From: a virus
Virus record (IMG/VR): IMGVR_UViG_3300045988_183660
Length of the DNA: 64,000 nucleotides
Reading direction: 5' to 3' (one strand)
This document shows positions 4,138-63,284 of the stretch, one piece after another. The notes below the pieces were generated by a model. That model was not told where the DNA came from and searched no databases. It was given only the letters and a program-made list of their open reading frames with translations. The first letter of the stretch is position 1. Each line of letters starts with the position of its first letter. A program made the translations under genes and the position numbers.

Positions 4138-4240
4138 AGCTGTACCAGTTTACTCTATGATGCTGCTTCGCATCCTAATAGAGTAAACTTAAAAATTCGG
4201 TAAATCTAATAAAACAAACTTCGCATCCTAATAAAATAAA
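4120..4240. repeat. intergenic two-hairpin repeat element, copy A (small hairpin CTTTACTTCGTAAAG + 10-bp stem AGTTTACTCT/AGAGTAAACT around loop TGATGCTGCTTCGCATCCTAAT + degenerate second module)
   Basis: Direct sequence comparison with copies at 4994-5052, 13105-13275 and 58273-58360, and an inverted copy at 55081-55240. Confidence 0.7.
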
Positions 4241-4299
4241 CTTAAAAACACTATAATTATAGAATCACTTTTTCAAAATATCTCTGTTAAAGCAGAGCA

Positions 4300-6150: not shown

Positions 6151-6275
6151 AGAAGTAAAGGAATTTGAACCTCTCATGGCTAAAGCCACGAGATTCTTGG
6201 GAACTCCTTTCTATTGAAAAGATATTTACCAAGCTAACCCGATAGTTCCTACCGTTTTTATTTATTCATTTATGC
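6150..6275 (-). ncRNA. putative TnpB omega/right-end RNA scaffold (IS right end)
   Basis: Structured non-coding region immediately 3-prime of tnpB. Known biology of IS605 TnpB. Not folded here. Confidence 0.3.
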
Positions 6276-7373: not shown

Positions 7374-7379
7374 TACTTT

Positions 7380-7784
7380 TTACCTCGCTTTTTTCTGATT
7401 TTGAATATACTTCCTTATTTGTTCTTCTGTATTTTCTGATACAGTCGCTACAAAATAGCTAGGATTCCACAAATGTCCACTCCATAATTTCCCTTTTAAT
7501 TCTTCTCCAAATTCTTTCATAAGTAATCTTGCTGATACACCTTTTAATGCTTTCACCATGTCAGGTATATAATGTTGTGGAGAACAATTTATAAGAAGAT
7601 GAATGTGGTCTTTATCTGTATTACATTCTAATATTTGAAATCCATTATCATCTGCTATTTTACTAAGTATATCTATTAATCTATTCTCTATTTGTTCCGT
7701 AATTATTTTGTGTCTGTATTTTACACACCAAACGATATGGTATTGTATTGAATATACATATCCACGTCCATGAGTTACTTCCAT
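7380..7784 (-). CDS. tnpA: IS200-type Y1 HUH transposase TnpA
   Basis: 134 aa. HIHLLI HUH motif and conserved Y near the C-terminus. Confidence 0.85.
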   Translation of the reverse strand: MEVTHGRGYVYSIQYHIVWCVKYRHKIITEQIENRLIDILSKIADDNGFQILECNTDKDHIHLLINCSPQHYIPDMVKALKGVSARLLMKEFGEELKGKLWSGHLWNPSYFVATVSENTEEQIRKYIQNQKKAR

Positions 7785-13104: not shown

Positions 13105-13275
13105 GGATACCTGTATCTACTTCGTAGCTACTTAAGTTTATTTTATGATACTAATATCTCTACTTTGTAGAGATATTCAAGTTTATTTATGATGCTGCTA
13201 CGCATCCTAATAAATAAACTTAATAAACTTCGGTAAATCTAATAAAACAAACTTAGTATCCTAATAATTCAATAA
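13105..13275. repeat. two-hairpin repeat element, copy B (tandem 1.5 units; stems TCTCTACTTTGTAGAGA and AGTTTATTTA/TAAATAAACT)
   Basis: Same loop TGATGCTGCTACGCATCCTAAT. The stem sequence differs from copy A but stays complementary. Confidence 0.7.
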
Positions 13276-13390
13276 CAAAGCAAACTTTATTGTATATTGT
13301 ACTCAAATAGGATATAATATAGTCATATAAGATGTAATCATAAAAAGAAAGGAACGTACTTTTGAAATATAAAGAAAGAAGGAAATAGAT

Positions 13391-13804
13391 ATGACAATAA
13401 GAGAATTAAGAAAATTAACAGGCATGTCACAGAGCCAGTTTGCAAAGAAATATGATATACCACTTAATACATTGCAGCATTGGGAAGGTGGCTATTCAGA
13501 ACCAGCAAGATACTTAGTAAAATTAATAGAAAGTACAATATGCAAAGATAGAAAAGTAATACAGGGAAATAATACTAAAGAAGGAACAATGTATTATTAT
13601 GATGAGCTTAATAAGCTTGTATATGATAATAAGGGCAATTGTTTAAGTCTTGAGATAGACCTTGATGCTACAAGTGAACATAATTTAGGTTTATATCTGG
13701 ATTTTATGTTTGAAGATTATTATAAAGCAAAAAAAAGTTTTGAAGCCCATCTTGATGCAGATAAAAAATCGGATGAAGATATTATATGGGAAAGATTATG
13801 GTAA
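13391..13804 (+). CDS. hipB: XRE-family HTH protein, HipB-like antitoxin
   Basis: N-terminal LRKLTGMSQSQFAKKYDIPLNTLQHWEGG HTH. Lies immediately upstream of hipA. Confidence 0.55.
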   Translation: MTIRELRKLTGMSQSQFAKKYDIPLNTLQHWEGGYSEPARYLVKLIESTICKDRKVIQGNNTKEGTMYYYDELNKLVYDNKGNCLSLEIDLDATSEHNLGLYLDFMFEDYYKAKKSFEAHLDADKKSDEDIIWERLW

Positions 13805-13817
13805 AGGATGTGATTAT

Positions 13818-15032
13818 ATGAGTAATGGAACATATTATTTAATGCATAAAGATATTCCAGTTGCTATTATGCAGCTTGAAGAAGATGATATTAATGCCAA
13901 GCCTTATAAAGTAACAATTAATGCTAAAAACATAGAACATCTTCCAATAGGTGCGAGAATGAATAACATGAAATTTATTGAGTGGTGGCAGGATAGAACT
14001 ATACCCAAAACGAGGCAGGGGGCTAAGAGTGCGTTAGAAAGGCTTGAATATAAGTCTGTTACCAATGCTATGATAGATAACCTTGCCTTAAGTCTTAATG
14101 ACTGTTATTGGATAAAACCATTGGATTCAGACCTTACATGGAAGGATGTTAATTTATTTTCCAATAAGTTTGAAGACAGATTTGGCGAATTAACTTTTAA
14201 TAAAGATTCCGGCTTGGATTTAAGAAATAAGACTAAATTTAAGTTTGCTGTATCTCAGGGAGAAGTACAGAAAAAATGGTGTATAGACAGTGAAAACAGA
14301 CGTTATATGGTAAAAGGCAATTATGGTACATCATATCAGCAGAGTATTAATGAAGTATTTGCGACTAAATTACACGAAGCTCAGGGCTTTGTGAATTTTA
14401 CACCATATTATTTCACTAAAATTGAACTGGAAAATAATATGACTGGACTTGGCTGTTTTTCTTATAATTTTTGCAATGAAAATATTGAAAGCATTTCGGC
14501 ATGGGAATTATTGCAGACTGTTAAAATAAAGCAGAATATGTCATTATATTATCCGTTTAAGCAGATATGCCTTGAGATGGGAATGAAAGAAGAAGACTTT
14601 GACTATTTCATGGATTATGAGATAATGACTGATTTTCTACTTACTAATACTGACAGACATATGAATAATATAAGTATATTAAGAAATCCTGATACACTTG
14701 AGTTCTTAGGCTTTGCTCCTATCTATGACAGTGGTAATTCAATGTTCTATTCAGTTCCTACTAATAAACTTAACAGTGTACATCTTGGTCAGGATAAGGT
14801 ACATTCATTTATTACATCACAGGAAAACAGACTATTATCATATGTAAAAGATAGAAATGTAGTAGACTTATCAAAATTTGATGATATATCTTTTTCGATA
14901 TATGAGAAAGATACTGAACCGAACAGAAGCATAATGCTTGAAGAAATGTTTTATAAGAAAGCTGAAGCTTTAAGAAGCTTTCAAAAAGGCAAAAACATAT
15001 GGAAACCTAAAACTGTACAGATTGAACATTAA
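13818..15032 (+). CDS. hipA: HipA-like Ser/Thr kinase toxin
   Basis: LLTNTDRHMNNISIL (HipA catalytic D.H..N) and APIYDSG motifs. Start at ATG 13818 with an RBS, 13 nt after the hipB stop. Confidence 0.65.
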   Translation: MSNGTYYLMHKDIPVAIMQLEEDDINAKPYKVTINAKNIEHLPIGARMNNMKFIEWWQDRTIPKTRQGAKSALERLEYKSVTNAMIDNLALSLNDCYWIKPLDSDLTWKDVNLFSNKFEDRFGELTFNKDSGLDLRNKTKFKFAVSQGEVQKKWCIDSENRRYMVKGNYGTSYQQSINEVFATKLHEAQGFVNFTPYYFTKIELENNMTGLGCFSYNFCNENIESISAWELLQTVKIKQNMSLYYPFKQICLEMGMKEEDFDYFMDYEIMTDFLLTNTDRHMNNISILRNPDTLEFLGFAPIYDSGNSMFYSVPTNKLNSVHLGQDKVHSFITSQENRLLSYVKDRNVVDLSKFDDISFSIYEKDTEPNRSIMLEEMFYKKAEALRSFQKGKNIWKPKTVQIEH

Positions 15033-16817: not shown

Positions 16818-17064
16818 TATAATTTTATCTATGCCACTTAAAATACAAGTTAATATAGAAAAATTACAATCATTAGAAATTAACGGATGGTCTATAGAAT
16901 GGCAGAATTTAGCAAAGAATATATTATTACAGCTAAATACTATGAAAGACAACAAAGAAATTTCTATAAGTGATTATCAGTATATTCATAAAAAATATCT
17001 TCATTCTATTGGTTCATTATCTATAGGAAATTCAGATTTTATGAATTTTTTAATAAAAAAATAA
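16807..17064 (+). CDS. hypothetical small protein
   Basis: ORF overlapping the upstream stop. Confidence 0.3.
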   Translation: MNDNIILSMPLKIQVNIEKLQSLEINGWSIEWQNLAKNILLQLNTMKDNKEISISDYQYIHKKYLHSIGSLSIGNSDFMNFLIKK

Positions 17065-17076
17065 AACCATAAAAAT

Positions 17077-17100
17077 AACAGCCTTCGGGCTGTTATTTTT
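17077..17100 (+). terminator. rho-independent terminator (second copy of ACAGCCTTCGGGCTGT)
   Basis: Identical to 15951-15975. Confidence 0.7.
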
Positions 17101-17174
17101 ATGTCAAAAAGCTTTATTACAATATTTTATAAATTGAGAAATCATATAATAAAGAAAAAATACAGGAAGGAATT

Positions 17175-18125
17175 TTGATTATGATGAAATTATCAGAAAT
17201 ATTTGAATCATATGATTTGAATATAATGAAAGATACAAACGGAGACTATTATGTAAAGGATAATGCAGAAAGCTTTCATAGTCTTAAGGCATGGACATAT
17301 GCAGGAAATGACTTGCTTAGTGTAATTGATACAATTCCAGACAGCTTGATTCAATCTGAGATAGATGATATATTTGATGGTTTTTTATCCGGTGAAACAA
17401 TCAGAAACGCACTTAAAGTTAAGGGCGTACCTGAAACAGCAGAAGAGGCTGTGGAATTTCTTGAATTTATAGATGAAAATTCATATGAAAATGTAGAAGG
17501 TAAATTAAATCTGTTAAGAGCAATTGCAGACCCGGAAAAGTATGTAGAAGATGATATTGAGCAGCAGTTTATAACTAAAGAAGATTATGAAAAATATCCT
17601 GATTTTGGTTTTGATTTTACGGATATAGGACAGGGAGTTGGATATAAAGCAGATATATCAGGATATGATTGGAAAGATATACCTGATAATGCGATTCTTT
17701 ATATTTCAGACTGTTATGCCGGAACTTGGGGATGCAGGTATACTAAAGCAGATTTAGAATCATGGGTAAATGAAAGAGTAATGGATAAGGAACATTTTAT
17801 AGATGCTGAAACAATGCTTGATGAGCTGTCAGGGGAAACGCCGGAAGAATTTTTAAATATGCATGATTTTAATTATAAATATGTTAAAAAAGATATCAGT
17901 TTATATTTTAGTGTAGGAGATAAGTTATATTATAACCTTAATGAATTTGATAGTCCGGCTCAGTCACTCCTAGTTACGGTTACTGAAGTAAATGAAGACA
18001 ATATTGTCTGTAAGGACAGTACAGGAACATCATATATGTTTGATGAAGATATGCTTTATTTTCTTACAAATAATCCTATGTATCCGGTTAAAAAGAATCT
18101 CAAAATACATGATATGGAGAGATAG
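17175..18125 (+). CDS. acidic hypothetical protein
   Basis: ORF, D/E-rich. Confidence 0.4.
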   Translation: MIMMKLSEIFESYDLNIMKDTNGDYYVKDNAESFHSLKAWTYAGNDLLSVIDTIPDSLIQSEIDDIFDGFLSGETIRNALKVKGVPETAEEAVEFLEFIDENSYENVEGKLNLLRAIADPEKYVEDDIEQQFITKEDYEKYPDFGFDFTDIGQGVGYKADISGYDWKDIPDNAILYISDCYAGTWGCRYTKADLESWVNERVMDKEHFIDAETMLDELSGETPEEFLNMHDFNYKYVKKDISLYFSVGDKLYYNLNEFDSPAQSLLVTVTEVNEDNIVCKDSTGTSYMFDEDMLYFLTNNPMYPVKKNLKIHDMER

Positions 18126-18315
18126 TAAAAATATACTTTTGAGCCAAAGTGTAAAAAGTAAAAAATAATTATTAATTTAGAAAATAATATAAAGTCTGTT
18201 TTATAGTCTGAATCTTATAGATTATAAAACAGATTTTATTTTTTTATTTCACTTTAATTATAAAAAAGCCTTTTTATAGCAAATGCTGAATAACCAAAAT
18301 GTATTATAAGGATGT

Positions 18316-18385
18316 GGATTTGATTGATTTTGTTTTCAATTTTGAAAACATTAAGAAATCAATCAAATTGGTAACATATTAATAT
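18316..18385. promoter_or_regulatory. palindromic element GATTGATTTTGTTTTCAA/TTGAAAACATT..AATCAATC + CAAATTGGTAACATAT (copy 1)
   Basis: Imperfect inverted repeat. Related copy at 46741-46885. Confidence 0.5.
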
Positions 18386-18425
18386 TGAAAGATACTAAAT
18401 AACACAATAAAAGGAGATTAAAAGT

Positions 18426-19007
18426 ATGTATTTAAAGTTAATTAAGACACCAGTACAGGTAAAATCAGCAGAAAAATCAGCAGAATCAGCAGAAACAAAG
18501 AATAAGGAAATGGAAGCAGCAATCGAAGCTACATTAAATGAACTTAGCACTGATGAGCTTGTAGATTTAATAACATTTCTTGAATCACTTGATTGTGATG
18601 ATGACTGTGATGAATGTGATGGATGTTTAGATGACTGTGATATCTGTGATAAGTGTGATGCAGATAATGTAGATGCATTATATGCAGCATTAGAAGAGCA
18701 GAGACTTTTAGAAGAAAATGAACGTCTTAAGAGAGAACTTGAAGCAGCTAAGAAGCCTGTTGAAATTAAAAAGGTTATCTTCAATGCACCTTATACTACA
18801 ATCATCTGGAATGATGGTTCAAGAACAATTTCAAAGTGGTATGGAAAGGGCTTTAATAAGTTCTCAGGTTTTACAGCATGTGTAGCTAAGAAGTTCTTAG
18901 GTGGTGTGCAGTTTAAGAAGGAACTGGCTAAGTGGTGTAAGGAAGATACAAAGCCTGAAACAGTAGAAGATGAGAATGGTTTATCTGATTACTGGAAAGA
19001 AAATTAA
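18426..19007 (+). CDS. acidic Cys-rich hypothetical protein (DCDDDCDECDGCLDDCDICDKCD)
   Basis: ORF with an RBS (AAGGAG). Confidence 0.4.
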   Translation: MYLKLIKTPVQVKSAEKSAESAETKNKEMEAAIEATLNELSTDELVDLITFLESLDCDDDCDECDGCLDDCDICDKCDADNVDALYAALEEQRLLEENERLKRELEAAKKPVEIKKVIFNAPYTTIIWNDGSRTISKWYGKGFNKFSGFTACVAKKFLGGVQFKKELAKWCKEDTKPETVEDENGLSDYWKEN

Positions 19008-19022
19008 TCTTGGAAGTAGTTT

Positions 19023-19799
19023 ATGAAAATTAAAGCAAATTATTTAATATTAAAAATAACAGCCATTATTACAATGATTATCGGTGATTTAAGTTATTTA
19101 TTAATACATAGATTAAATGATTCTTGGATAATGGTTATGACAGCAATAGGAAATCTGTCATTTCCATTATTTGCTTTTTTGCTTACTGAAACTTTTTTGA
19201 AACAATCTGATAAAAATAATAAGTATAAGAATTATAAGTATAAATTAATTATGCTTTTATTACTTGCCTTTATAAGTGAAATACCATTCAATGTATTTTT
19301 GTCCGGCAGTATTAAATACCCATTAAAAAACAATGTATGTTTTACATTATTTTCAGGATTTTTAATGCTTATATTATTGGATAAAGATTATTATGGTTTC
19401 TTCTTTAATTACTATAAAGATAAAAAGGTCAGATTAGGATTTAAGAAATATAGTAAGAAAAAAAGTAGAAGATTCAATTTCTATGTAAAAACAATAATTA
19501 TAAGTGGATTCATGTTAGGTAATTATCTTATAGCTAATGATTATTCATATACAGGAATATTATTAATAGCTTTATTCTATCTGTTAAGAAATAAAAAGAA
19601 ATTAAGAGCTGTTATACCGATTATAATACTTATTTTATCTGAAGCTAATATTCTTTATATACCGGTACTTATTGATATAGCTTTAATTGCCTTATATGAC
19701 AATAAAAGAATGAATATATCCAAGCCTGTTAAATATGGTTTAAGAATAATATACCCGGTATTTATCAGTATAATGGCAATTTTAAGTTTGATTATATGA
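19023..19799 (+). CDS. polytopic membrane protein (possibly TraX-like)
   Basis: About 7 hydrophobic segments. The TraX assignment is weak. Confidence 0.3.
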   Translation: MKIKANYLILKITAIITMIIGDLSYLLIHRLNDSWIMVMTAIGNLSFPLFAFLLTETFLKQSDKNNKYKNYKYKLIMLLLLAFISEIPFNVFLSGSIKYPLKNNVCFTLFSGFLMLILLDKDYYGFFFNYYKDKKVRLGFKKYSKKKSRRFNFYVKTIIISGFMLGNYLIANDYSYTGILLIALFYLLRNKKKLRAVIPIIILILSEANILYIPVLIDIALIALYDNKRMNISKPVKYGLRIIYPVFISIMAILSLII

Positions 19800-33404: not shown

Positions 33405-33496
33405 AAATCAAATGGATTTCAATAAGAATGTTACGAAGCATGTAAAAAAATCGTTTTAATAGATGTTACGAAGCATGTAAAAAATCGTTTTAATAG
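33405..33496 (+). ncRNA. toxI: ToxI-like type III antitoxin RNA: about 2.5 tandem repeats of 35-36 nt (AATGTTACGAAGCATGTAAAAAAATCGTTTTAATAG)
   Basis: Two near-perfect tandem repeats plus a partial one, placed between the promoter and a terminator directly upstream of a ToxN homolog. Confidence 0.6.
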
Positions 33497-33538: not shown

Positions 33539-34057
33539 ATGAAATAGATTCATGCAGATGAAAAATATTTGGATTATTTAAGAACAATTGAAAGAAGAAT
33601 ACCTAGAACAGACTATGGTTCTGACAAATATAAGCCTTTTTTTGGGGTTTTATTTGAGACAAATGATTTGTATTATATTACACAAGTTTCACATCCGCAG
33701 AAAAGACATGAAAAAATGAATGAGCAAAGGGATTTTTATAAATTATTCAATCCACGAAATCCAAAGGAATTAATAGCTGTAGTGAATCTTAATTATATGT
33801 TCCCTATACCTAAGAACTGTACATATAATTTTCAAAAAAATAATATGGAGTTATATAGAACTTTTAAATCAGATGAAGAAAAAAGCAGATATATAGATTT
33901 ATTAAACAAAGAACTAGAAGCTATAAATAAACTAAATTTAGATGAAAAAGCAAAATATATATATAATTTAAAATATAATAAACCGGATAATAATATTTCA
34001 AAAAGATGTATTGATTTTAAAGATTTAGAAAAATATGCAAAATTATATAAAAAATAA
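33539..34057 (+). CDS. toxN: ToxN/AbiQ-family type III toxin endoribonuclease; ATG-AAA-TAG: in-frame amber stop at codon 3
   Basis: AGGGAG RBS 7 nt upstream of ATG 33539. Downstream frame reads IHADEKYLDYLRTIERRIP...KPFFGVLFE...LIAVVNLNYMFPIP, which aligns with ToxN MKFYTISSKYIEYLK...KAFIGIVLE...LGLINLKFMIPI. The track ORF starts at TTG 33569. Confidence 0.65.
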
Positions 34058-44931: not shown

Positions 44932-45141
44932 AATCATCCGGCAATAGTTGGCTGCTTCAAAATTAACCATATAAGCATTGTATAAGGCTTGAAACCTTAT
45001 ATGATGCTTTTTTTATGCTTAAAAATATCTTCAAAATCTATAAAAAGTCCTTTTTACAACTTTTTTGAAGTATGGGATTGTTACAATACATATAAATAAA
45101 AAATAAAAGTAGTCATAGGCTGCTTAGAATAGGAGAAATAT

Positions 45142-53159: not shown

Positions 53160-53233
53160 ATCAGACTTAATTTTGCTTCACCTTTGAAACAATAGATATA
53201 TATGTTATAATGTATAAAAGGACGGTAATAATT

Positions 53234-54493
53234 ATGTATAAAATAAATGAACATATAAAGAGATATCTGCTTAATGAATATAAAGGTTCTGAGCAAAAAG
53301 ACACTATTATATTAAATGATGGCAATAAGTATTTATTAAAGAAGCCAGACCCGACCAGAGAAAAAAATAAAAGGGAATTGCTTTCATATATTAATAACGT
53401 GTATTCAGAATATATAGGCTGCAATATTGCAAAACTATTAGGCTTTGAAGTACAGGAAACAAAATTAGGTGAATATACAACTAAAAATAGATATGGTGAA
53501 GAAGTCACTAAAATTGTATGCTTATGTAAGGATGTAAGAGAAAAAAATGAAAAGATGCGTGAATTTGATACTATATCCTTAAGTTCTGATGTACCGACCA
53601 ATATTGTAACCTTTGATATAACAGAAAATATCATTTCAAATATTCAGGAAAGATTAAATCTATCAGATAATACAACACAGGAAATAAGAGAATTTTATTA
53701 TAAATTGTTTATTTTAGATGCTTTTATCGGAAATACGGACAGGCATAATGGAAATGTAGCTATATTATTAGATGAAAATGATGAACTTTCAAGAATTTCT
53801 CCAATATATGATTGTGGTTCATGTCTGCTGCCATTAGTTGATGATAAAGAGATAATCAATTGTAATTTTCAAAGTCTGGCATTATCCATAAATTCAGTAA
53901 TAAGGACAAATGATATTAAAACAATCAGGTATAATGATTTTTTAATTAATCATAGAGATGAAAACATAGATAATGCTTTATTGGAAATTATCTGCAATAT
54001 TAATCTTGCTGAAATAAATAAAATGATAGATAATACAGATTATATATCTGAGATAAGAAAAGACTTCTATAAAAACATTCTTGAGTTAAGATATAATAAA
54101 ATATTAATCCCTGCATTAGAACAGATTTTCCAAAAAGATAATATATATCTAAAACTCATTCCAGATAATATAGACCTGTATAAAATCTATCGGGATAATA
54201 TTAAGCTTATATCAGATTTAGCTTTCTTTGATAGGCACACTATTTCCTGTGGAAAGAAAAAAGTAGACATTATGAAAGTCAATAAAAAATATGCTCTATG
54301 TATTAAAGATGATAAATGCATAGGACTTATACCTATAAGGTCAAATAATAATGAAGTAAGAGATGCTATCAGATTCTTTAATAAGATTGGATTTGATATA
54401 ATAAATGATAAGATTCAAATTGTAGATTCATTAGTGTATAAACCTAAGCAGGAAAAGCCTAAAATAAAAAAAGACATAGATTTGGAAAGATAA
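53234..54493 (+). CDS. HipA-like kinase (HipA_C-type catalytic motifs), second copy in the window
   Basis: FIGNTDRHNGNVAIL and PIYDCGS motifs. AAAGGA RBS before ATG 53234. Confidence 0.5.
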   Translation: MYKINEHIKRYLLNEYKGSEQKDTIILNDGNKYLLKKPDPTREKNKRELLSYINNVYSEYIGCNIAKLLGFEVQETKLGEYTTKNRYGEEVTKIVCLCKDVREKNEKMREFDTISLSSDVPTNIVTFDITENIISNIQERLNLSDNTTQEIREFYYKLFILDAFIGNTDRHNGNVAILLDENDELSRISPIYDCGSCLLPLVDDKEIINCNFQSLALSINSVIRTNDIKTIRYNDFLINHRDENIDNALLEIICNINLAEINKMIDNTDYISEIRKDFYKNILELRYNKILIPALEQIFQKDNIYLKLIPDNIDLYKIYRDNIKLISDLAFFDRHTISCGKKKVDIMKVNKKYALCIKDDKCIGLIPIRSNNNEVRDAIRFFNKIGFDIINDKIQIVDSLVYKPKQEKPKIKKDIDLER

Positions 54494-54877: not shown

Positions 54878-54912
54878 TACCCTCACAGTTTAGGCTGTGG
54901 GGGGTTTTTTTA
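54878..54912 (+). terminator. rho-independent terminator (CCCTCACAG...CTGTGGGGG + T-run)
   Basis: GC-rich stem with a T-run. Confidence 0.6.
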
Positions 54913-55080
54913 TGCACAATTTGTTTTACTTTTATTGCAGCTACACAGTAGATTGCAAGTAAAACAAATTTGTATCATTAAAAATATTTTTTCTTCTTTT
55001 TTATATAAAAAGTCCTTTTTATAGTAAATCTGATTTTTAAAAAATATAAAATGTAATCATAAAAAAAGAAAGTTTGTTTA

Positions 55081-55240
55081 TTAGGACGCAAAATTTGTTT
55101 TATTAGATTTGCCAAATTTTTAAGTTCACTTTATTAGATTTGCCAAAGGCAAATCTAATAAAATGAACTTGTACAGTTCTACGAAGTAGAAATGCTAGTA
55201 TCATAGAACAAATTTAAGCAGTTACGAAGTAAATGCAGGG
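55081..55240. repeat. inverted-orientation copy of the two-hairpin repeat family (GGCAAATCTAATAAA units, TTCTACGAAGTAGAA hairpin)
   Basis: The reverse complement matches CGGTAAATCTAATAAAACAAACTTCGCATCCTAA of copies A and B. Confidence 0.6.
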
Positions 55241-55495
55241 AAGGAGAGAGAAAAAATGAAGCTGACAAAAGAAGATGAAAAGACAATGATATTAATAATT
55301 AAAGCACTTACATTAGTGATTAATTTATCAACCTTATATAAGCTTTTAAAAATCTTAAAGAAATTAATTGCTATTAATCAGAAAATAGCTTCAATGGAAC
55401 AACTAAGAAAGGAATAAAATTATAAAAAATTAAAAAGAAGCAAACTTTCAGATTATATACACATCACTGCCTAACTAAGGAAGGAGAAAATAAGT

Positions 55496-55900
55496 ATGAG
55501 TACAGATTCATACATTGTAATTATTCTAATAATATTTTTTGTAGCTATGTTTCTAACTATGTTTAGATTGATACATTTAATATCCGGTCTTATTGCTTGT
55601 TTCGTTGCATTAATGGCAGCTACACCAGTAATGTCTTTTGATGTATATTCTCATACATCATCAGTGTCGCAAATCTCAATACAGGAAATAAATAAAATAA
55701 GTCCAAGGGATAATAGTGATACATTATTCAATGTCACATATACGGATGCAGAAGATATTAATAGAAAGATAACTGTTAAAGAAATAGTTTACGATTCGGA
55801 TACTACATATATTGAAAAGGCAAGAAAAACATTTTTGTTTCTTTATGAGGACAATTATGTGTTACATGAGCCGCAGGAATTTATAAATAATAATAATTAA
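55496..55900 (+). CDS. small membrane-anchored protein, paralog family A member 1
   Basis: TM helices plus the conserved C-terminal domain NVTYTD...K.TVKEI.YDSD.TYIEKARK.FLFLYED.YVLHEP. Confidence 0.45.
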   Translation: MSTDSYIVIILIIFFVAMFLTMFRLIHLISGLIACFVALMAATPVMSFDVYSHTSSVSQISIQEINKISPRDNSDTLFNVTYTDAEDINRKITVKEIVYDSDTTYIEKARKTFLFLYEDNYVLHEPQEFINNNN

Positions 55901-55915
55901 AGAAAGGAAGAATTT

Positions 55916-56314
55916 ATGAATATAAATTTGTTTATATTTATAGGAATTATATTTTGTTTTATTACAATGCTAAGTCTAATTTACTTTAATGGTATTATAG
56001 GAGTATTTTTAACTTTTTTGATTGCATGTTTAATTTATTTGCCAACAATAGCTCTTAATCATGCAAACTCAAATATTATATCACAAATTTCAGTACAAGA
56101 AATAAATAATATCGAAGCTAAAAATAACAGTGATACATTTTATAATGTTACATATACGGATACTGATGAAAATAGGAAAAAGGTAACTGTTAAAGAAATA
56201 GCTTACGATTCAGATATTACATATATAGAAAAGGCAAGAAAAGCATTTCTATTTCTTTATGAAGATAGCTATGTATTACATGAGCCACAGGGATTTATAA
56301 ATAATAATAATTAA
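55916..56314 (+). CDS. small membrane-anchored protein, family A member 2
   Basis: About 75% identical to member 1 in the C-terminal domain. Confidence 0.45.
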   Translation: MNINLFIFIGIIFCFITMLSLIYFNGIIGVFLTFLIACLIYLPTIALNHANSNIISQISVQEINNIEAKNNSDTFYNVTYTDTDENRKKVTVKEIAYDSDITYIEKARKAFLFLYEDSYVLHEPQGFINNNN

Positions 56315-56330
56315 AGGTAAGGAGAAAATT

Positions 56331-56738
56331 ATGAGATTGATATTAACCTTTGTCTTTTTAGGGGCATTGATTGCAGGAGTACTTACAATAACAGGAATTG
56401 CAACAATACTTATTAGTGATTCAAAGAATATTAAAAAAGAAGTTGTTTTAACAAGCGTGTATTTATTGGCTTTTATAATTCTTACATTAGGATACACACT
56501 GCCTGTAAATCATTATAAGACAGCAATAAAGAACAGTATAAAAGCTGAGTATGGAAATGTATATGAGTATGACTATTGTTATCTTTTAGATACAGGCAGC
56601 TTTACATATGATAATAATTACTATGATATTGAAACAACTAAGGATATTGATAATAACACATATGTTAAAGTAACAAAGGAAAATAATAATAGTAATGCAG
56701 AAAAAGAAAGCTTGAATCTGCCAATAAAGAAAAATTAG
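56331..56738 (+). CDS. small membrane protein (2 TM) with an unrelated C-terminal domain
   Basis: ORF with an RBS (AAGGAGAAAATT). Confidence 0.4.
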   Translation: MRLILTFVFLGALIAGVLTITGIATILISDSKNIKKEVVLTSVYLLAFIILTLGYTLPVNHYKTAIKNSIKAEYGNVYEYDYCYLLDTGSFTYDNNYYDIETTKDIDNNTYVKVTKENNNSNAEKESLNLPIKKN

Positions 56739-56751
56739 AAAGGCTTATGAT

Positions 56752-57111
56752 ATGACATTAATTGAGTATGAACAGTTTTTAAAGGATTTTGATATTCATT
56801 ATAAGGAAGCAGATTTTGGAATAGATGATACATTTTCAAACTGTCTTTTAAAACAGACTTCAAAAAGCCATATAAGTCAATTTTATAAGAAGCGTCACGA
56901 TTTGATAAATCATATAAATGACACTACTGATGTTGTTGCATATGTTAAATTTAAAAATATATACAGAAATAGAAATGACTGTATCAAAAATATAAGCATT
57001 GAAAATAAAATTGTAGCTGATTATAAGGTACTGATTTGGAAAGCCTTATTGCATATTAAAACTACTGAATCAGGCTTTGATGTTCACAGAATAAAATATA
57101 AATCTTCCTGA
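56752..57111 (+). CDS. hypothetical protein
   Basis: ORF. Confidence 0.35.
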   Translation: MTLIEYEQFLKDFDIHYKEADFGIDDTFSNCLLKQTSKSHISQFYKKRHDLINHINDTTDVVAYVKFKNIYRNRNDCIKNISIENKIVADYKVLIWKALLHIKTTESGFDVHRIKYKSS

Positions 57112-57146
57112 GCAACGAGAATAGAGAGTAAAAAGGAGAAAATATT

Positions 57147-57566
57147 ATGGATGTTAATGTATTTATAATACTTTTTATAATTATTATGTCAGGCATTTTC
57201 TGGATGGCACTTTTATGTACTGATATATTAAGAGCAAAAGCTAAAACAAGTGCCTTGATTCTGGTAGCTATTATGTGTATAACAGGTGCTATTATAGACT
57301 TATTGGATAATAAAGTTACAAAAAGTAATAATATTGTTTCATATACAATTTCGGTAACAGCAATAGAAGAATATAATAAAATGTTAAGAACAAATACATC
57401 AGTAATAAAATATAAGGATGATACAGGAAAAACAGATGAAATAACCATAGACGATATTAAATATGATTCAGATTCAACATTCATAGAAATAAAAAAGCGT
57501 AGATGGGGATTTTTGTATGGTACAGAGAATATCATTCATTTTCAAAACAGTTCAAATATTAACTAA
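57147..57566 (+). CDS. small membrane-anchored protein, family A member 3 (divergent)
   Basis: C-terminal domain YKDDTGKTDEITIDDIKYDSDSTFIEIKKRRWGFLYGTENIIHF. Confidence 0.45.
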   Translation: MDVNVFIILFIIIMSGIFWMALLCTDILRAKAKTSALILVAIMCITGAIIDLLDNKVTKSNNIVSYTISVTAIEEYNKMLRTNTSVIKYKDDTGKTDEITIDDIKYDSDSTFIEIKKRRWGFLYGTENIIHFQNSSNIN

Positions 57567-57698
57567 AAATTACTATATAGATTAACTTTATGCACCATGC
57601 AGTTTTGTGTGGTGCATTTATTATAATTAAGCCTTTTTATGTAAATTTGCAGGTACACATATTATAAAATAAAGACATAAAAATAAAAGGAGTTCGCT

Positions 57699-58259
57699 AT
57701 GATTGATATTAAAGAAACTATTAAAGGTACAAAATTATGGTTTTATAGAGACAAAGCAAACAAAGTAGTATATGGAATTGTAGATTGTTGCTATCGAAAC
57801 AAATATTTTAGTGACGAATATCTTATACAGGTTACAGGTAATTCAAATGATTTAGACAGCTTTGTAGGTACTAAAATTTTAAACATCAGACATTTTTATA
57901 ATACGAAGGAAGAGTGTGAATCAGAACATAATAATAAATCAAATGAAACTTATGAAATCTATAAAGGATGGATTAAAGATGTAAATAGTCTTTTCTATTT
58001 TCCATTAAAAAGGGATTTATCTCCGGAATCTAATTTTAGTAGTAAGTATGAATATGTGAAAGCTTATGAAACCAGAGCAAAAGAATTTGGATTTAATATA
58101 AAAACATACTGGTTTGATTATTATATTAAAGACCTTATCTTACAGGCTTATTGTATATTAAGGGATATTAATAATTCATTTGCTGTTCCTAAGCCTAAAA
58201 CAGCCGAATTATTTAAAGATGCACATGCTGATATAAAAGCCTACAAATGTCTCTACTAA
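57699..58259 (+). CDS. hypothetical protein
   Basis: ORF with an RBS (AAAGGAG). Confidence 0.4.
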   Translation: MIDIKETIKGTKLWFYRDKANKVVYGIVDCCYRNKYFSDEYLIQVTGNSNDLDSFVGTKILNIRHFYNTKEECESEHNNKSNETYEIYKGWIKDVNSLFYFPLKRDLSPESNFSSKYEYVKAYETRAKEFGFNIKTYWFDYYIKDLILQAYCILRDINNSFAVPKPKTAELFKDAHADIKAYKCLY

Positions 58260-58272
58260 CGTAGAGCAATGT

Positions 58273-58360
58273 CTCTATTTCATAGAGCCATGTCAGTTTG
58301 CCTTATGATGCCGTCATTACATTCCGCCCTAATAGGGCAAACTTAAAATCACTATAACAA
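58273..58360. repeat. two-hairpin repeat element, copy D (CTCTATTTCATAGAG + AGTTTGCCTTA/TAGGGCAAACT stem)
   Basis: Same architecture as copies A-C, with a different stem sequence. Confidence 0.65.
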
Positions 58361-58437
58361 TAGAATTATTTCTGAAAGAGTAAAAGATTATATTTTGCTT
58401 ATAGCAAATTCAAAAAAATATATAAATTAAAACATCA

Positions 58438-58478
58438 TTGACAACTATCCTCATAGGGTATATACTATAGTTATAAAA
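58438..58478 (+). promoter_or_regulatory. promoter/operator unit TTGACA-N17-TATACTATAGTT (copy 3)
   Basis: Near-identical to units at 28543 and 44155. Confidence 0.55.
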
Positions 58479-58500
58479 AAAGATATAAGGAGCAGAATAT

Positions 58501-59244
58501 ATGAGAAGTATAAGCAGGAAAAAATCATTTTGGAAAGAATTTTATGAATATTATGAAGATGGTATAAAGATAGCAGGATTTATACTGGCAATTATTGCAT
58601 CAGTAGCATTTTTAGGAATTAGTTCTTTTTTATTAAATTATTTTCATCTGACTGATGTAATTTTTAATGAAAACACAGACTGGTATGACAAACTTTTTAT
58701 TACCATGTTTTTTGAGATTATGGCAATATTAAGTCTTGTGATGATAGTTCTTATTATATATTCAGCAATAAAGTTCCTGATTCTTTTTATATCAAAGACA
58801 AGAGCAATTAAAAGATATACATATCTTCCTTTAACTGCTGATGAAGTAAGATTTATGATTGGTGAAGGAATTATAACAACTGATAGGGATTATACATATT
58901 ATCTTACTGACCAGCTTTTGTTTAAAGATGAAAATGGTGTAGATTGTTTGGATTTTACAGATGATGATATGGAAAAGCTTATAGATACATATGAAGAAGT
59001 ATTTAATAAGCCGCTTATCCTTGATAAAGAGTATTTTAAGAAATATGCAGCATCATGGTGTTCAGGTAAGTATATAACTAAAGATAGCCCTAATATTGTT
59101 CTCCGTGAGGTGATTTATCCTTTTAACTATAAGTACAAGGTTCAACTCATAAGTTATGAAAAAGGCACTAATCCTGTTGTATTTGCTCATAAAAATAATT
59201 CTTTTAAAAAAATAGAAAATGCTAATTATATTTATATAAAGTAA
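58501..59244 (+). CDS. membrane protein (N-terminal 2-3 TM) with a C-terminal soluble domain
   Basis: ORF with an RBS (TAAGGAGCAG). Confidence 0.4.
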   Translation: MRSISRKKSFWKEFYEYYEDGIKIAGFILAIIASVAFLGISSFLLNYFHLTDVIFNENTDWYDKLFITMFFEIMAILSLVMIVLIIYSAIKFLILFISKTRAIKRYTYLPLTADEVRFMIGEGIITTDRDYTYYLTDQLLFKDENGVDCLDFTDDDMEKLIDTYEEVFNKPLILDKEYFKKYAASWCSGKYITKDSPNIVLREVIYPFNYKYKVQLISYEKGTNPVVFAHKNNSFKKIENANYIYIK

Positions 59245-59255
59245 GGAGAATAGAT

Positions 59256-59651
59256 ATGGATATTTATACTTTTTCTTTAATTTTAGACGTTGTTTTTTTA
59301 ATAAGTATTGCAATTATGATATTTCTTTCAAATGAAAATCATAATAAAGCAGCTTTAATAGTATTTATTGCTGATATTATCATATTGATTTTTTCAGTAA
59401 TAGCTTCAGGCAGAATAAAAAGAGGAAATAACTTTGAAGCCTATACAATTCCGGTAACACATATACAGGAAACGGAAAGAGAAGAATGGGGTGATAAAGT
59501 AATAAAGATTACAGATGATACAGGCAGTGAAAAAGAAGTTGCAATAAATGAGACAAAGTATGATGCAGATACTACATATGTGGAGATGAAGAGATACAAG
59601 TTTTGGTTTATTTATAAGGATAAAAATATACTGCATATCAAAGCAAATTAA
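59256..59651 (+). CDS. small membrane-anchored protein, family A member 4
   Basis: C-terminal domain KITDDTGSEKEVAINETKYDADTTYVEMKRYKFWFIYKDKNILHIK. Confidence 0.45.
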   Translation: MDIYTFSLILDVVFLISIAIMIFLSNENHNKAALIVFIADIIILIFSVIASGRIKRGNNFEAYTIPVTHIQETEREEWGDKVIKITDDTGSEKEVAINETKYDADTTYVEMKRYKFWFIYKDKNILHIKAN

Positions 59652-59669
59652 GGGGAGAAAATATAAGTT

Positions 59670-60089
59670 ATGAATATTAATGTGTTTTTTATACTAATGA
59701 TTATTTTAATAGGAATTGTAGGAATTGTAACGTCACTTTTATGTACATCAAAAAGAACAGAAAATATGTTTTTACCAGCTATTATATCATTTGGTCTTTT
59801 TAGTATTATCGTTATAAGTTTTATGATAATATCTGTCATTCAACTATATAAAGATAAAAATACTAATACATATAATATTGAAGTAGTACGAGTACAAGAT
59901 ACAGATAAACAGAATTGGAGTGGCAAAGCAATTAAATATACAGATATTGCAGGCAATGAAAATGAAGCTGTAATTAGTGATACAAAGTATGATACAGATT
60001 CAACATATATAGAAATGAAAAGATATAAGTGGTGGTTCTTATATGAAGATAATAACGTATTACATATTAAGTTAAATCAGAAGAAATAA
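59670..60089 (+). CDS. small membrane-anchored protein, family A member 5
   Basis: C-terminal domain KYTDIAGNENEAVISDTKYDTDSTYIEMKRYKWWFLYEDNNVLHIK. Confidence 0.45.
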   Translation: MNINVFFILMIILIGIVGIVTSLLCTSKRTENMFLPAIISFGLFSIIVISFMIISVIQLYKDKNTNTYNIEVVRVQDTDKQNWSGKAIKYTDIAGNENEAVISDTKYDTDSTYIEMKRYKWWFLYEDNNVLHIKLNQKK

Positions 60090-60440: not shown

Positions 60441-60731
60441 ATGGAAAAGATTATTAATGAAGAATATGAAATATTCTTAAAGAACATGGAAACCGGAGTA
60501 ACTTTTAACAGATTTCTTATTGTAGATAATTATGAAGGTGAATACTCACATAATGAGATTAGAAATGCAATGGGAATGTTATCGTACCTTATGAAGAAAT
60601 GGCTGCATGAAAATAAGCCGGGGAAGTACATAGTATCAGTATCGCCTGACTACTGTATATTCGTTATGACTGTTAAAGAAGCTCAGATGCGTAATGTAAG
60701 TACATATACATTACTTAGTGTTGTTAAGTGA
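60441..60731 (+). CDS. hypothetical protein
   Basis: ORF with an RBS (AGGAG). Confidence 0.35.
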   Translation: MEKIINEEYEIFLKNMETGVTFNRFLIVDNYEGEYSHNEIRNAMGMLSYLMKKWLHENKPGKYIVSVSPDYCIFVMTVKEAQMRNVSTYTLLSVVK

Positions 60732-61270
60732 AAGGAGAACACATGAGTATAGAAGTGATAAGTTTTATATTATTAAGAATAATGCCTGTTATTTTTATAA
60801 TTTGCTTTGCATCCTATCTGGCAAATGCATTAAAATTTCGTAGTATTGCATTCAGGTATCCGCTTGATACAAACTGGATTCCTTATGAATGTAAGGCGAG
60901 CATATGTTTAGCTGAAGTAATTCTATTAATGTGTGTGGATTTATTGAAGATAAAGAATTTAGCTATTCTTATAGTGATATTGGTTTTTGCAATTATATTA
61001 CTTGTATGGATTATATTTACCAATATTTTTTATAAGCAGGAAGAAAAGAACAGACTATATAGGGAACTAATATATGTCTGGAATCAGGAAGATTTAACAG
61101 ACTTCCAAAAGCATATGAGCCGTGAAGAACAGATTGCATTCTTAAAATCCATTAAGAAGACACAGACCGTCAGCATAAATGGAAAGGAAGAAGAGATATA
61201 TGAAGAAATACATTTAATTGCTGATGATGCACAGTTAAAACTTTTTGAACCAATTCTTAGAAAAAAATAA
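60728..61270 (+). CDS. membrane protein
   Basis: ORF overlapping the upstream stop. 3-4 TM segments. Confidence 0.4.
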   Translation: MKGEHMSIEVISFILLRIMPVIFIICFASYLANALKFRSIAFRYPLDTNWIPYECKASICLAEVILLMCVDLLKIKNLAILIVILVFAIILLVWIIFTNIFYKQEEKNRLYRELIYVWNQEDLTDFQKHMSREEQIAFLKSIKKTQTVSINGKEEEIYEEIHLIADDAQLKLFEPILRKK

Positions 61271-62275: not shown

Positions 62276-62289
62276 TACAATTCTTACCA

Positions 62290-62327
62290 GACACCTGTTT
62301 TTTAGCAGGTGTCTTTTTTTGTATCTA
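62290..62327 (+). terminator. rho-independent terminator (AGACACCTG...CAGGTGTCT + T-run)
   Basis: Perfect 9-bp stem. Confidence 0.7.
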
Positions 62328-62446
62328 AAAAATTATTTATTTTTTATTTCAAAAAACTATAAAAAGGACTTTTTATAATATTTGAAAATGATAAAGCTGA
62401 TAAACTATATACATAAAAGAAATAAATAAAAAGGAGAACAAATAGT

Positions 62447-62854
62447 ATGGAAATATTATCAATAATTTTATTGGTATTAGGGGCTGTAGAAGTTATCGGA
62501 GGATTTATAGTATTGTGGAGCGAATTTTCAGAATCAGGAACTTTTATTATTTTCGTTGGATGGGGATGTATGTTGATTGGAGCGTTAGTCGCACCATCAG
62601 CAAAAAATGAGAATAATCCTACAATCGAAATCAGCACTGAAGTAGAAACTGTTACGGAATCACAATCAGTAAAATCAAGTTCTATTAAAGTAGTGATTTT
62701 AAATAAATATAACGGTGCTGAGATTATAAGTGATGGAAAATTAGGTAAAGGCTATTTTATATATGAACAGGAAAAATATAGTTATGAATTAGATGATAAC
62801 ATCTTATTCATTAGCAAAGATAATAAAGTTATAGATTATTTATATGTAAATTAG
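62447..62854 (+). CDS. small membrane-anchored protein, paralog family B member 1
   Basis: 2 TM helices plus the conserved TEVETVTE...AEIISD...IYLN C-terminal domain. Confidence 0.45.
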   Translation: MEILSIILLVLGAVEVIGGFIVLWSEFSESGTFIIFVGWGCMLIGALVAPSAKNENNPTIEISTEVETVTESQSVKSSSIKVVILNKYNGAEIISDGKLGKGYFIYEQEKYSYELDDNILFISKDNKVIDYLYVN

Positions 62855-62864
62855 AAAGGAAAGT

Positions 62865-63284
62865 GTGTATATGGAAATATTTATGTTTATGTTAGGTATT
62901 ACAGTAGTTATCGGAGGAATTATATTAATTTTTTCTGATACAGATGGTTCATCTGGTACAGATGGTGTTGTAATTACTTTATTTGGTCTTTTATTTATAA
63001 CGAGTGCCATTTTTATAAAAGAAATTAATACAAATAAAATTAATACTGAAGTAGAAACCGTTACCGAAACAGAAAAGGAAGAAATATCTGATTCAGCAAA
63101 GAATAGCAATATTAAAATTGCATTGATACAAAACTATCCTGAAGCTGAAATAATCAGTGATGAAAATGATTTACAGCAGGGCATTTTTATTTACAATAAC
63201 GAAACTTATAATTTTGAAGTGGAAGATAATGTCCTGTTTATAAAACAAGATAAGAAGCTTGTTAAATACATCTATTTGAATTAA
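62865..63284 (+). CDS. small membrane-anchored protein, family B member 2
   Basis: Paralog of 62447 with the same architecture. Confidence 0.45.
   Translation: MYMEIFMFMLGITVVIGGIILIFSDTDGSSGTDGVVITLFGLLFITSAIFIKEINTNKINTEVETVTETEKEEISDSAKNSNIKIALIQNYPEAEIISDENDLQQGIFIYNNETYNFEVEDNVLFIKQDKKLVKYIYLN

Follow-up and report, generated by a model that had tools for sequence, protein, structure and literature searches.

Five small genes in the window, as we call the whole 64-kb stretch of DNA analysed here, are ancient paralogs of a single lineage-restricted family whose shared C-terminal domain was previously undescribed and is new relative to Pfam, NCBIfam, PHROGs, PADLOC, and the PDB. That these genes are real and conserved and show no toxin link in the loci examined is secure; as to what they do, our best guess, made tentatively, is a putative exclusion-type envelope barrier against incoming DNA. 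An earlier note on this DNA had described a diversified array of paralogous small membrane-anchored proteins, a pattern it called characteristic of immunity-protein or superinfection-exclusion islands, for example those downstream of polymorphic toxins. The array, on a mobile element, stands, while the link to polymorphic toxins is unsupported.

The five paralogs and their shared domain

The earlier note had placed five genes of 131 to 139 aa here, and all five open-reading frames (W1 to W5) were found on the + strand (Table 1), with no sixth copy of the family within the 64-kb window. The alignment of the five proteins over their whole length contained 12 invariant columns, and that of their C-terminal ~80 residues contained nine (D, YD.D.T, E, F.Y, and H), which bears out a shared C-terminal domain of ~75 aa. 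BLASTP of the window copies against non-orthologous copies in independent loci returned E values of 1e-6 to 1e-35, and by these sequence comparisons homology among the copies is far above chance. Pairwise identity, previously put at 35–75%, is 23–56% over the full length and 29–69% over the domain relative to W1, and orthologs in different variants of the element are 75–94% identical. W1 and W2 also share a DNA repeat, D1, of 203 nt at 84%. When clustered at 90% identity, the family formed 228 clusters, all of 103–146 aa; at 50% identity, only 30 clusters were found among 1.84e9 representatives, ~25 of them true members. Single clusters of family genes are represented on as many as 69 contigs, and 72 of the best 120 database matches were closest to W4. 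The family signature is D...YD.D.TY.E...F.Y...LH, and polar residues are invariant across 38 diverse members.

The domain, which the earlier note did not recognise, was likewise unrecognised by every library tried. There was no above-threshold match in Pfam or NCBIfam, no match in the PDB, nothing at E <= 0.001 in BFVD, a single sub-threshold PHROGs match (E 1.3e-4) to a function-unknown family, and in PADLOC a very weak, sub-threshold, and compositional match of W1 to a '2TM effector' model (E 0.009), with none for the other paralogs; no housekeeping family was matched in these searches. The AlphaFold model of W5 has helices at residues 3–25 and 28–59 followed by six strands, with a pLDDT of 82 overall and 81 within the domain. 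The predicted build has two parts, a membrane hairpin of two helices at the N-terminus and, after it, a compact all-beta domain of ~75 residues with six strands. Where one to two transmembrane (TM) helices had been claimed, the W5 model has two, and a residue-composition scan counted two uncharged stretches in W1, W2, W3, and W5; in W4 it counted one, since an Asp interrupts the other of the two hydrophobic segments that can be read in that sequence. The N-terminal tails are short and acidic (mean 0.08 K/R and 1.12 D/E), and this charge bias, the only guide to topology, suggests an N-out/C-out arrangement that would place the beta domain on the cell-wall side; the basic stretch that W4 carries after TM2 counts against it. 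Bacterial PH domain proteins (bPH_2, two TM helices plus a PH domain) were considered and rejected, judged by their hallmarks, a PF03703 match and a beta sandwich with a C-terminal helical cap.

Between the window and locus L009, dN/dS over the domain was 0.10–0.37 for W1, W2, and W4 (0.10 in W1) and was looser over the TM segments (0.5–0.76), with the exception of W2, which had zero nonsynonymous changes there; by this codon comparison, the orthologs are under purifying selection. The region is AT-rich (27% GC locally) and holds many chance ORFs, a setting in which spurious or non-functional ORFs could pass for genes. For this family, that explanation is refuted and has practically no chance of being right, given domain dN/dS well below 1, the invariant polar residues, the confident AlphaFold models, the recurrence across contigs, and a ribosome-binding site visible upstream of W1.

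Table 1 Features of the array region, in window coordinates
Feature	Position	Strand	Remark
Terminator-like hairpin closing upstream HipA-like unit	54880..54903	+	10-bp stem, 6 GC pairs, T tract
Intergenic palindrome TATAAAAAGTCCTTTTTATAGT	55004..55025	.	22 nt, 100% complementary
Operator-like unit, TTATTAGATTTGCC 2x direct + 1x inverted	55100..55161	.	Upstream of operon 1
53-aa ORF with hydrophobic stretch, operon 1 first gene	55256..55417	+	Called as gene in L001-L005
W1, paralog 1, 134 aa	55496..55900	+	Predicted 2-TM hairpin + beta domain
W2, paralog 2, 132 aa	55916..56314	+	W1 tandem duplicate, 56% identity
m135, small membrane protein, separate orphan family	56331..56738	+	Syntenic in relatives
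o119, soluble 119-aa protein	56752..57111	+	ORF
W3, paralog 3, 139 aa	57147..57566	+	ORF, alignment
Terminator-like hairpin closing operon 1	57590..57617	+	12-bp stem, -16.9 kcal/mol, unique in window
o186, 186-aa protein	57699..58259	+	Homolog at different position in relatives
Operon 2 sigma-70-like promoter, TTGACA-17-TATACT	58438..58466	+	11/12 consensus matches, region's best
m247, 2-TM + ~150-aa C-terminal domain (probably cytoplasmic)	58501..59244	+	Recurrent immediate neighbour of domain gene
W4, paralog 4, 131 aa	59256..59651	+	Most widespread type
W5, paralog 5, 139 aa	59670..60089	+	Copy chosen for structure prediction
m180, 3-TM protein	60728..61270	+	Homolog near distant family member (L026 253-795, E 4e-7)
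Terminator-like hairpin closing operon 2	62289..62314	+	Hairpin scan

Organisation of the locus and of its host element

The hairpin and the promoter/operator unit previously reported in the array region were both found, along with a palindrome, TATAAAAAGTCCTTTTTATAGT, which has a second perfect copy at 62356–62377; the two copies bracket the array region, and the window holds five matches against 0.01 expected. The operator-like TTATTAGATTTGCC unit recurs upstream of two other sets of genes, near 4.2 kb and 13.2 kb. The unrelated small ORFs said to lie among the paralogs are m135, o119, o186, and m247. No relation of m135 to the domain was found by hhalign, and a weak, sub-threshold Pfam match of o119 to ToxN went unsupported in BLASTP against the window's ToxN. 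The m247 type, an orphan family of 12 clusters, adjoins a member of the domain family in the window, in L007, L009/L010, and L028, and in the deep-branching L023–L025.

We compared ~eight distinct locus architectures (L001–L028), judging neighbours from precomputed Pfam lists; the sampling of loci is biased because they were fetched via family members. Synteny of the array holds from one element variant to the next, with gene order conserved and no shuffling seen in these loci, and its size, which the earlier note had proposed to compare, varies from one to five copies per element. A W1 ortholog and W4 were present in all array loci fetched, W2 is missing from L007 and L012–L021, the W3-position copy is frameshifted in L008–L011 and intact in L028, and an HNH gene occupies the place of two genes of sister loci.

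Members of the family occur only on one lineage of extrachromosomal or integrative elements that recur in human gut metagenomes. The elements are very large (at least 244 kb) and low in GC, almost all of their genes share one strand, and GTDB species representatives, PLSDB, and INPHARED yielded none of them. Element genes encode a CpaF/VirB11-like ATPase (T2SSE), a TadB/C-like platform protein (T2SSF), TraX, an SLT hydrolase, DUF932, and a giant secreted repeat protein; the window also encodes a ProQ_C-like protein, and L020 a Tn916-type Xis/Int. The tested ORFs of the 64-kb window included no relaxase, VirB4, VirD4, or recognisable VirB6, and the searches of the window turned up no structural genes of phages. 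The element is possibly conjugative or pilus-bearing. The cassette sits in an accessory region. In the window, 35 kb separate it from the ATPase and platform genes, and in a 244-kb contig its distance to the ATPase is ~160 kb. In compact relatives it begins ~2 kb downstream of the SLT hydrolase, an order that loosely resembles ICEBs1, where yddJ is located downstream of cwlT.

Giant plasmid-like extrachromosomal elements of oral Streptococcus, called Inocle, have been reported with VirB4 and VirD4 (PMC12340149). Compared by organisation alone, and as regards the host element and not the array genes, the two are alike in their hundreds of kb, long co-oriented gene stretches, IS elements, RecD-like helicases, and many function-unknown cell-wall or membrane proteins, and both were missed by reference databases. 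They differ in source, oral Streptococcus versus gut metagenomes, and in having VirB4/VirD4 versus the CpaF/T2SSF-type system of the window.

Alternative readings: toxin immunity, defence, and element machinery

The earlier note had likened the array to immunity-protein or superinfection-exclusion islands, such as those downstream of polymorphic toxins. On the immunity reading, the paralogs would be an orphan set that protects from a polymorphic or contact-dependent toxin, and toxin-linked orphan immunity arrays (CdiI, Rhs-I, EsaG/DUF600) likewise consist of tandem, diverged paralogs with strain-variable copy number. They differ from the present array, which has no adjacent toxin gene or fragment, conserved synteny, and purifying selection on its orthologs. 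No LXG, WXG100, Rhs, Ntox, or other toxin domain was listed for the neighbours in the ~eight architectures, and with no toxin gene beside the array in the examined loci, the association is unsupported. The giant surface protein 11 kb upstream, formerly named as a candidate cognate toxin, has a signal peptide and Flg_new repeats without a toxin domain, and its repeat-like sequence runs on close to the C-terminus. The window's only recognised toxin is ToxN, of the RNA-antitoxin system ToxIN, 21 kb from the array. Invariant arrays unlinked to toxin loci were what the earlier note had set against its own reading; toxin linkage was indeed absent from the loci compared, whereas the arrays vary in copy number, with gene order conserved and orthologs 75–94% identical under purifying selection. 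Context largely refutes the immunity reading, and we consider it highly improbable.

A membrane-acting abortive infection or defence function, in which the extracellular domain would sense phage and the TM hairpin or m247 would collapse the membrane, draws on the neighbourhood in the window, where the array comes after a defence-like insertion with a HipA-like kinase (PADLOC candidate PDC-M03A, 2.9e-23) and an HTH-PIF1/RecD-like helicase. ToxIN on the same element and the PADLOC match of W1 point the same way, but that match is compositional, sub-threshold, and confined to one paralog. Compact relatives keep the array without the insertion, so the linkage to defence is not conserved, and we regard such a function as quite improbable.

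The paralogs could also be specialised subunits of the element's own machinery, forming a membrane complex with m247 and m180 for a pilus, a mating channel, the giant adhesin, or maintenance. This is consistent with W1-type and W4-type copies in all array loci fetched, with the strongly conserved polar motif and constrained domain, with m247-family adjacency even in the deepest branch, with the abundance of other small membrane proteins in the region, and with the operator-like unit that operon 1 has in common with other modules. Arguing against it are copies that vary in number and are lost or frameshifted while the element persists, and the distance of the array from the ATPase and platform genes. 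A pilin-type signal peptide is also absent, and there are two TM helices in place of one. Membership among type IV pilins or pseudopilins (ComG, TadE/F-like) was rejected on these grounds and on N-termini (MNIN/MDIY/MSTD) that carry no G/F-x-x-x-E motif. Overall, a role as machinery subunits seems to us somewhat unlikely.

A possible role in entry exclusion

The reading that we tentatively prefer, a barrier to incoming DNA and hence a possible superinfection- or entry-exclusion role, draws on several observations. The family is lineage-restricted, as is typical of exclusion or immunity factors, and it behaves as an accessory one (one to five copies, one of them frameshifted, and the HNH replacement). 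Its genes are real and under constraint, with m247 adjacency kept across deep divergence; operon 1 has an operator-like unit common to two other element promoters, and operon 2 a near-consensus promoter; and TraX, SLT, T2SSE, T2SSF, and DUF932 genes lie on the same possibly conjugative or pilus-bearing element. Like exclusion proteins, the products are predicted to be small membrane proteins of the envelope, with two TM helices and a 75-aa domain. Against this, no homology to a known exclusion or Sie protein was found in Pfam, NCBIfam, PHROGs, or PADLOC, and, to our knowledge, known exclusion systems have one gene per element, not five.

In such a barrier, the beta domain would face the cell-wall side, and the proteins would work from the envelope of the cell that carries the element. 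They would bind part of a DNA-delivery machine coming in from outside, which could be a phage or the mating apparatus of a related element. A common metal-binding or scaffold site would be formed by the conserved acidic/His cluster, m247 may be the membrane partner, and the diverged paralogs would supply several specificities. The specific proposal that each paralog blocks a different delivery variant of a sister element or phage, with m247 as membrane partner, is distinctly unlikely. The strongly conserved polar motif and the purifying selection on the domain can be explained at least equally well by one biochemical or structural function common to the paralogs as by diversified specificity.

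Among known systems, YddJ of ICEBs1 from Bacillus subtilis is a small recipient exclusion protein whose target is a putative extracellular loop of the donor VirB6-like protein ConG (10.1101/2021.01.25.428195). YddJ and the array proteins are alike in being of ~130 aa, in the envelope, encoded by a mobile element, lineage-specific, and without wider homologs. However, they have no sequence or family match, YddJ is a single-copy lipoprotein and not a two-TM hairpin, and it acts on VirB6-like ConG, whereas here there are one to five paralogs and no recognisable VirB6 in the window. Eex of SXT/R391 and TraS of F-like plasmids are small multi-TM inner-membrane exclusion proteins whose sequence variants define specificity groups; they are Gram-negative, with one gene per element, and Eex specificity lies in cytoplasmic regions. 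The likeness is to small multi-TM membrane proteins of conjugative elements; there is no homology, and the array family has a discrete beta domain. Phage superinfection-exclusion proteins of the lactococcal Sie2009 type and T4 Imm and Sp combine a small membrane anchor with a small extracytoplasmic part and block incoming DNA, and they resemble the array proteins in this build, as predicted for the latter, and in being encoded by mobile elements. Membership in that group (Sie2009, Ltp, Imm, Sp) was rejected, as PHROGs and BFVD gave no significant match and the genes lie in a paralog array outside a prophage lysogeny module.

The immediate value of these results is modest, a new and clearly bounded DUF whose motif can be tested and a clear negative on toxin immunity. 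If the proteins are structural, the array and m247 would mark a new envelope complex. If multi-specificity exclusion is true, this would be the first exclusion system to consist of a paralog array and only the second of any kind known from a Gram-positive-type element, with a new small beta fold that carries a conserved acidic/His site. If the proteins are exclusion or barrier factors, their paralog repertoire would offer a means to type incompatibility or exclusion groups, and they would show how giant elements police the entry of relatives or phages.

An orphan domain shared by five small membrane proteins

An array of five ORFs coding for small, membrane-anchored paralogs had been claimed in the earlier note, and all five, designated W1–W5, are present in the window at the positions claimed for them (see table). 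End-to-end alignment of the five proteins produced 12 invariant columns, and alignment of the last ~80 residues produced nine (D, YD.D.T, E, F.Y, and H), bearing out the shared C-terminal domain. The pairwise identity estimated for it was somewhat too high, as the measured values range from 23 to 56% over the full length and, for domain identity to the first copy, from 29 to 69%. Each window copy matched non-orthologous copies in independent metagenomic loci by BLASTP with E values of 1e-6 to 1e-35, indicating true paralogy rather than an effect of composition. Scanning the 64-kb window with an HMM of the domain found exactly five copies and none on the opposite strand.

AlphaFold2, run on an alignment of 27 sequences, predicts for W5 a hairpin of two helices (residues 3-25 and 28-59) and, after it, six beta strands (mean pLDDT 82). 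The domain alone, modelled on a 38-sequence alignment that included the most distant members, produced the same six strands (pLDDT 81). Family members have a short, acidic N-terminal tail with, on average, 1.12 D/E and 0.08 K/R, and K/R residues are found in the loop between the helices. Under the positive-inside rule, this charge bias favours an N-out/C-out topology, which would place the domain outside the membrane, although W4 has a basic stretch after the second transmembrane (TM) helix that runs counter to this topology. In the 38 aligned members, D32, D48, D50, T52, Y53, E55, F63, Y65, L71, and H72 (domain numbering) are nearly invariant, and a group of acidic residues with the histidine, within the strand 4-5 loop or close to it, looks like a putative metal- or ligand-binding site. 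Readings of the W proteins as pseudopilins or as bPH proteins were ruled out on features of sequence and model.

The domain, which the earlier note did not recognise, is indeed new at the sequence level. Nothing in Pfam was over threshold even at E ≤ 1, NCBIfam gave no match, PADLOC gave only a compositional 2TM match for W1 (E 0.009), and the single match in PHROGs was sub-threshold and to a family of unknown function. A sequence-profile search of the PDB found none below E 0.35, and a Foldseek search of BFVD found none at E ≤ 0.001.

A profile search covering 5.8 billion 90%-identity clusters matched 228 proteins. Among the matches listed (120 of the 228), all are 103-146 aa long and named nothing beyond "hypothetical protein", and single clusters occur on up to 69 contigs; these 120 and the five window copies fall into eight clusters at 60% identity. 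The names of two records with family members give human gut metagenome as the source. An exhaustive HMMER search of 1.84 billion representatives at 50% identity (cut-off E ≤ 1e-3) returned 30 proteins, about 25 of them true members, full-length or fragments, and every full-length true member has the 2-TM-plus-domain build. The giant VCBS/cadherin-type repeat proteins P0122, P0135, P0136, P0139, P0141, and P0144-P0146 were rejected as non-members with a generic T-Y-T-A-T-D-G hairpin. These proteins reach 1e-32 against the domain profile because up to 20 partial matches of ~40 positions each to this generic beta-hairpin motif are summed over the repeats, a trap in automated family building. The domain profile matched no GTDB species representative, tblastn of W5 against PLSDB and INPHARED found no annotated plasmid or phage with a relative, and DNA near-identical to the window is absent from both of these collections.

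Organization of the locus and its neighbours

The window is ~29% G+C, and nearly all of its genes lie on the plus strand. The array is divided between two operons, and both the promoter/operator unit and the interspersed, unrelated small ORFs of the earlier note were located in the locus, the small membrane proteins that were tested being unrelated by hhalign. As relatives of the domain, m135 (hhalign probability 1.8%) and the pair at 62447/62865 (32%) were rejected, as was the interleaved gene o119 as a relative of ToxN. The two proteins of this pair are 44% identical, and a third copy, 30% identical, lies at 18640-19047 of the related locus L001, further downstream on the same element.

Features of the window (positions in nt; single positions as given)
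Feature	Position	Strand	Remark
DUF3990 protein	447-1091	+	E 1e-39; secondary match ART-PolyVal, ADP-ribosyltransferase of polyvalent proteins
Palindrome motif	1911-1930, 18259-18278, 45039-45058, 55004-55023, 62358-62377		intergenic
Common promoter/operator unit	4138-4300, 13160-13391, 55060-55257		intergenic
IS200/IS605 element	6270-7784	-	TnpA (Y1_Tnp, E 1e-42); TnpB (OrfB_IS605 + Cas12f-like TNB domain)
HTH gene and second HipA_C-like kinase	13391-13804 and 13710-15032	+	shared promoter/operator unit before kinase
34-nt tandem repeat, two copies	33428-33496	+	97% matching; 5' of ToxN
ToxN	33569-34057	+	Pfam match E 3.8e-41; half of ToxIN-like type III toxin-antitoxin pair
HipA_C-like kinase	53210-54493	+	directly upstream of array; PADLOC candidate defence family PDC-M03A, E 2.9e-23
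Terminator-like hairpin	54880-54903		closes unit upstream of array
22-nt palindrome	55004-55025		between terminator-like hairpin and operator-like triple
Operator-like triple of TTATTAGATTTGCC	55100-55161		3' of 22-nt palindrome
Operon 1			53-aa ORF, W1, W2, m135 (56331), o119 (56752), W3
W1	55496-55900	+	ORF, 134 aa
W2	55916-56314	+	ORF, 132 aa
W3	57147-57566	+	ORF, 139 aa
Hairpin ending operon 1	57590-57617
o186	57699		small gene between operons 1 and 2
Operon 2 promoter	58438-58466		near-consensus, 11/12 matches
Operon 2			m247 (58501), W4, W5, then run of small genes including 3-TM m180 (60728)
W4	59256-59651	+	ORF, 131 aa
W5	59670-60089	+	ORF, 139 aa
Terminator of operon 2	62289
Second perfect palindrome copy	62356-62377		with 55004-55025 copy brackets array region
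Second small membrane-anchored paralog family	62447-62854, 62865-63284	+	TM region + ~60-aa beta-rich C-terminal part

The intergenic palindrome TATAAAAAG-NN-CTTTTTATA has five matches in the window against 0.01 expected and could mark a module boundary, bind a protein, or act as a bidirectional terminator. The promoter/operator unit of the array, centred on GG(T/C)AAATCTAATAAAA..AACTT, also precedes genes near 4.2 kb and 13.2 kb, and the half-site TTATTAGATTTGCC has 6 matches in the window against 1.8 expected. The occurrence of a common unit in three intergenic regions implies that several modules of the element would be under one element-encoded regulator. Control of the W genes is split between this element-wide operator and a strong promoter independent of it.

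The m247 family is the one neighbour kept into the deepest branch, directly adjoining a W-family gene in the window, L007, L009/L010, L028, and L023-L025 (the L023 protein matches that of the window at E 8e-20). It is an orphan family of 12 clusters, and m247 had no match in Pfam or the PDB. A homolog of m180 occurs near a distant W-family member in L026.

Copy number, constraint, and possible function

Comparison with the related metagenomic loci confirmed the array as genuine and of old origin, and showed that it is under constraint and differs in size between elements. The cassette is syntenic, with the order W1, (W2), m135, o119, (W3), W4, m247-type, (W5), and orthologs are 75-94% identical compared to 23-56% for paralogs, indicating that the duplications are older than the divergence of the sampled elements. 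Array size between variants, a comparison proposed in the earlier note, differs from one copy in the deep branches (L023-L026) to two in L012-L021, three in L007, four in L008 and L011, and five in the window, L009, and L010. The W3-position copy is frameshift-split in L008-L011 and intact in L028, and at 10766-12028 L008 and L011 have a gene for a 420-aa RRXRR-HNH endonuclease where L009 and L010 have m265 and W5-type genes, which suggests a homing-type replacement within the array. The upstream backbone also varies: compact relatives have SLT, three small genes, and DUF5052, then the array, whereas the window has an insertion of GT2, 521-aa, PIF1, and HipA genes in between.

Between the window and L009, dN/dS (Nei-Gojobori) was 0.10 in the domain and 0.70 in the TM part of W1, 0.37 and 0.51 in W4, and 0.85 (on very few substitutions) and 0.76 in W5; in W2 it was 0.34 in the domain, with no nonsynonymous change in the TM part. 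By these ratios, the domain is under purifying selection, not arms-race hypervariability. The earlier note had likened the array to immunity-protein or superinfection-exclusion islands, with the giant surface protein and the Fic fragment as the nearest candidates for a toxin. The toxin-immunity reading fails on context, since no toxin-domain gene lies beside the array in any locus architecture examined, the giant protein is repeat adhesin-like without a toxin domain, and the array is syntenic and constrained; we now regard toxin immunity as very improbable.

The W proteins are lineage-specific and membrane-anchored, with a small domain that is probably surface-exposed. Their genes vary in copy number, lie in the accessory part of a giant element, and are coupled to the gene of another orphan membrane protein, that of the m247 family. 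The main rival reading, favoured by the invariant polar motif and by the finding of W1- and W4-type copies in all fetched array loci, makes the proteins structural or accessory components of an envelope complex with m247; we consider it doubtful. That the proteins form a membrane abortive-infection module seems quite unlikely. The best functional analogy, a tentative one, would be an exclusion-type barrier, in which the paralogs would supply several specificities.

The element carrying the array

The window encodes a CpaF/VirB11-family ATPase with a T2SSF-type platform protein, a 3171-aa signal-peptide-bearing Flg_new repeat protein, flotillin, two HipA-like kinases, TraX, a RuvC-like protein, a ProQ_C-like protein, DUF932, an SLT hydrolase, a GT2 glycosyltransferase, and an HTH-PIF1/RecD-like helicase. 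TnpA and TnpB are its only annotated minus-strand genes and coincide with its only GC-skew reversal. The repeat pair 5' of ToxN probably encodes a ToxI-like RNA antitoxin. In the downstream continuation of the element, from 19635 of L001 onward, an RtcB RNA ligase gene is split by an intein that gives weak matches to PT-HINT and Intein_splicing.

The nearest annotated relatives of the ATPase are CpaF/VirB11 genes (~28% identity) on Bacillus, Paraclostridium, and Lactococcus plasmids. The window's element is found near-unchanged on contigs up to 115 kb, and a 244-kb IMG/VR contig (IMGVR_UViG_3300045988_184161; L007, L027) contains the array and the ATPase ~160 kb apart. Family members occur on contigs up to 731 kb among the matches listed, one copy lies mid-way in a 647-kb scaffold (L019), and a deep-branching member is accompanied by RecJ, LigA, and RuvA on a 213-kb contig, where all called genes of the fetched stretch are on one strand. 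In L020 only, a Tn916-type Xis and tyrosine integrase (17008-18766) end the accessory region and could have come from a nested Tn916-like insertion or be the integration module of the element itself. On this evidence, the family is carried by very large elements, plasmid-like or integrative, the probable host being a Firmicute. Searches of PLSDB, INPHARED, and GTDB species representatives found no such host element, and a GTDB scan with its DUF932 backbone protein gave no match.

A jumbo-phage identity was rejected: the 244-kb relative is filed as viral by IMG/VR, but no phage structural genes were detected in the 64-kb window, which has pilus- or transfer-type genes. The giant element is provisionally treated as plasmid- or ICE-like and may be transmissible. 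In organization it recalls the Inocles of oral streptococci (PMC12340149), a likeness to be taken only as a lead. The host-element lineage is very large and low in GC, with genes co-oriented over long stretches, and is found in the human gut. The W family is a new orphan family within a familiar class, the small accessory membrane proteins of mobile elements, and the giant gut element carrying the array is arguably a more interesting object than the genes themselves.
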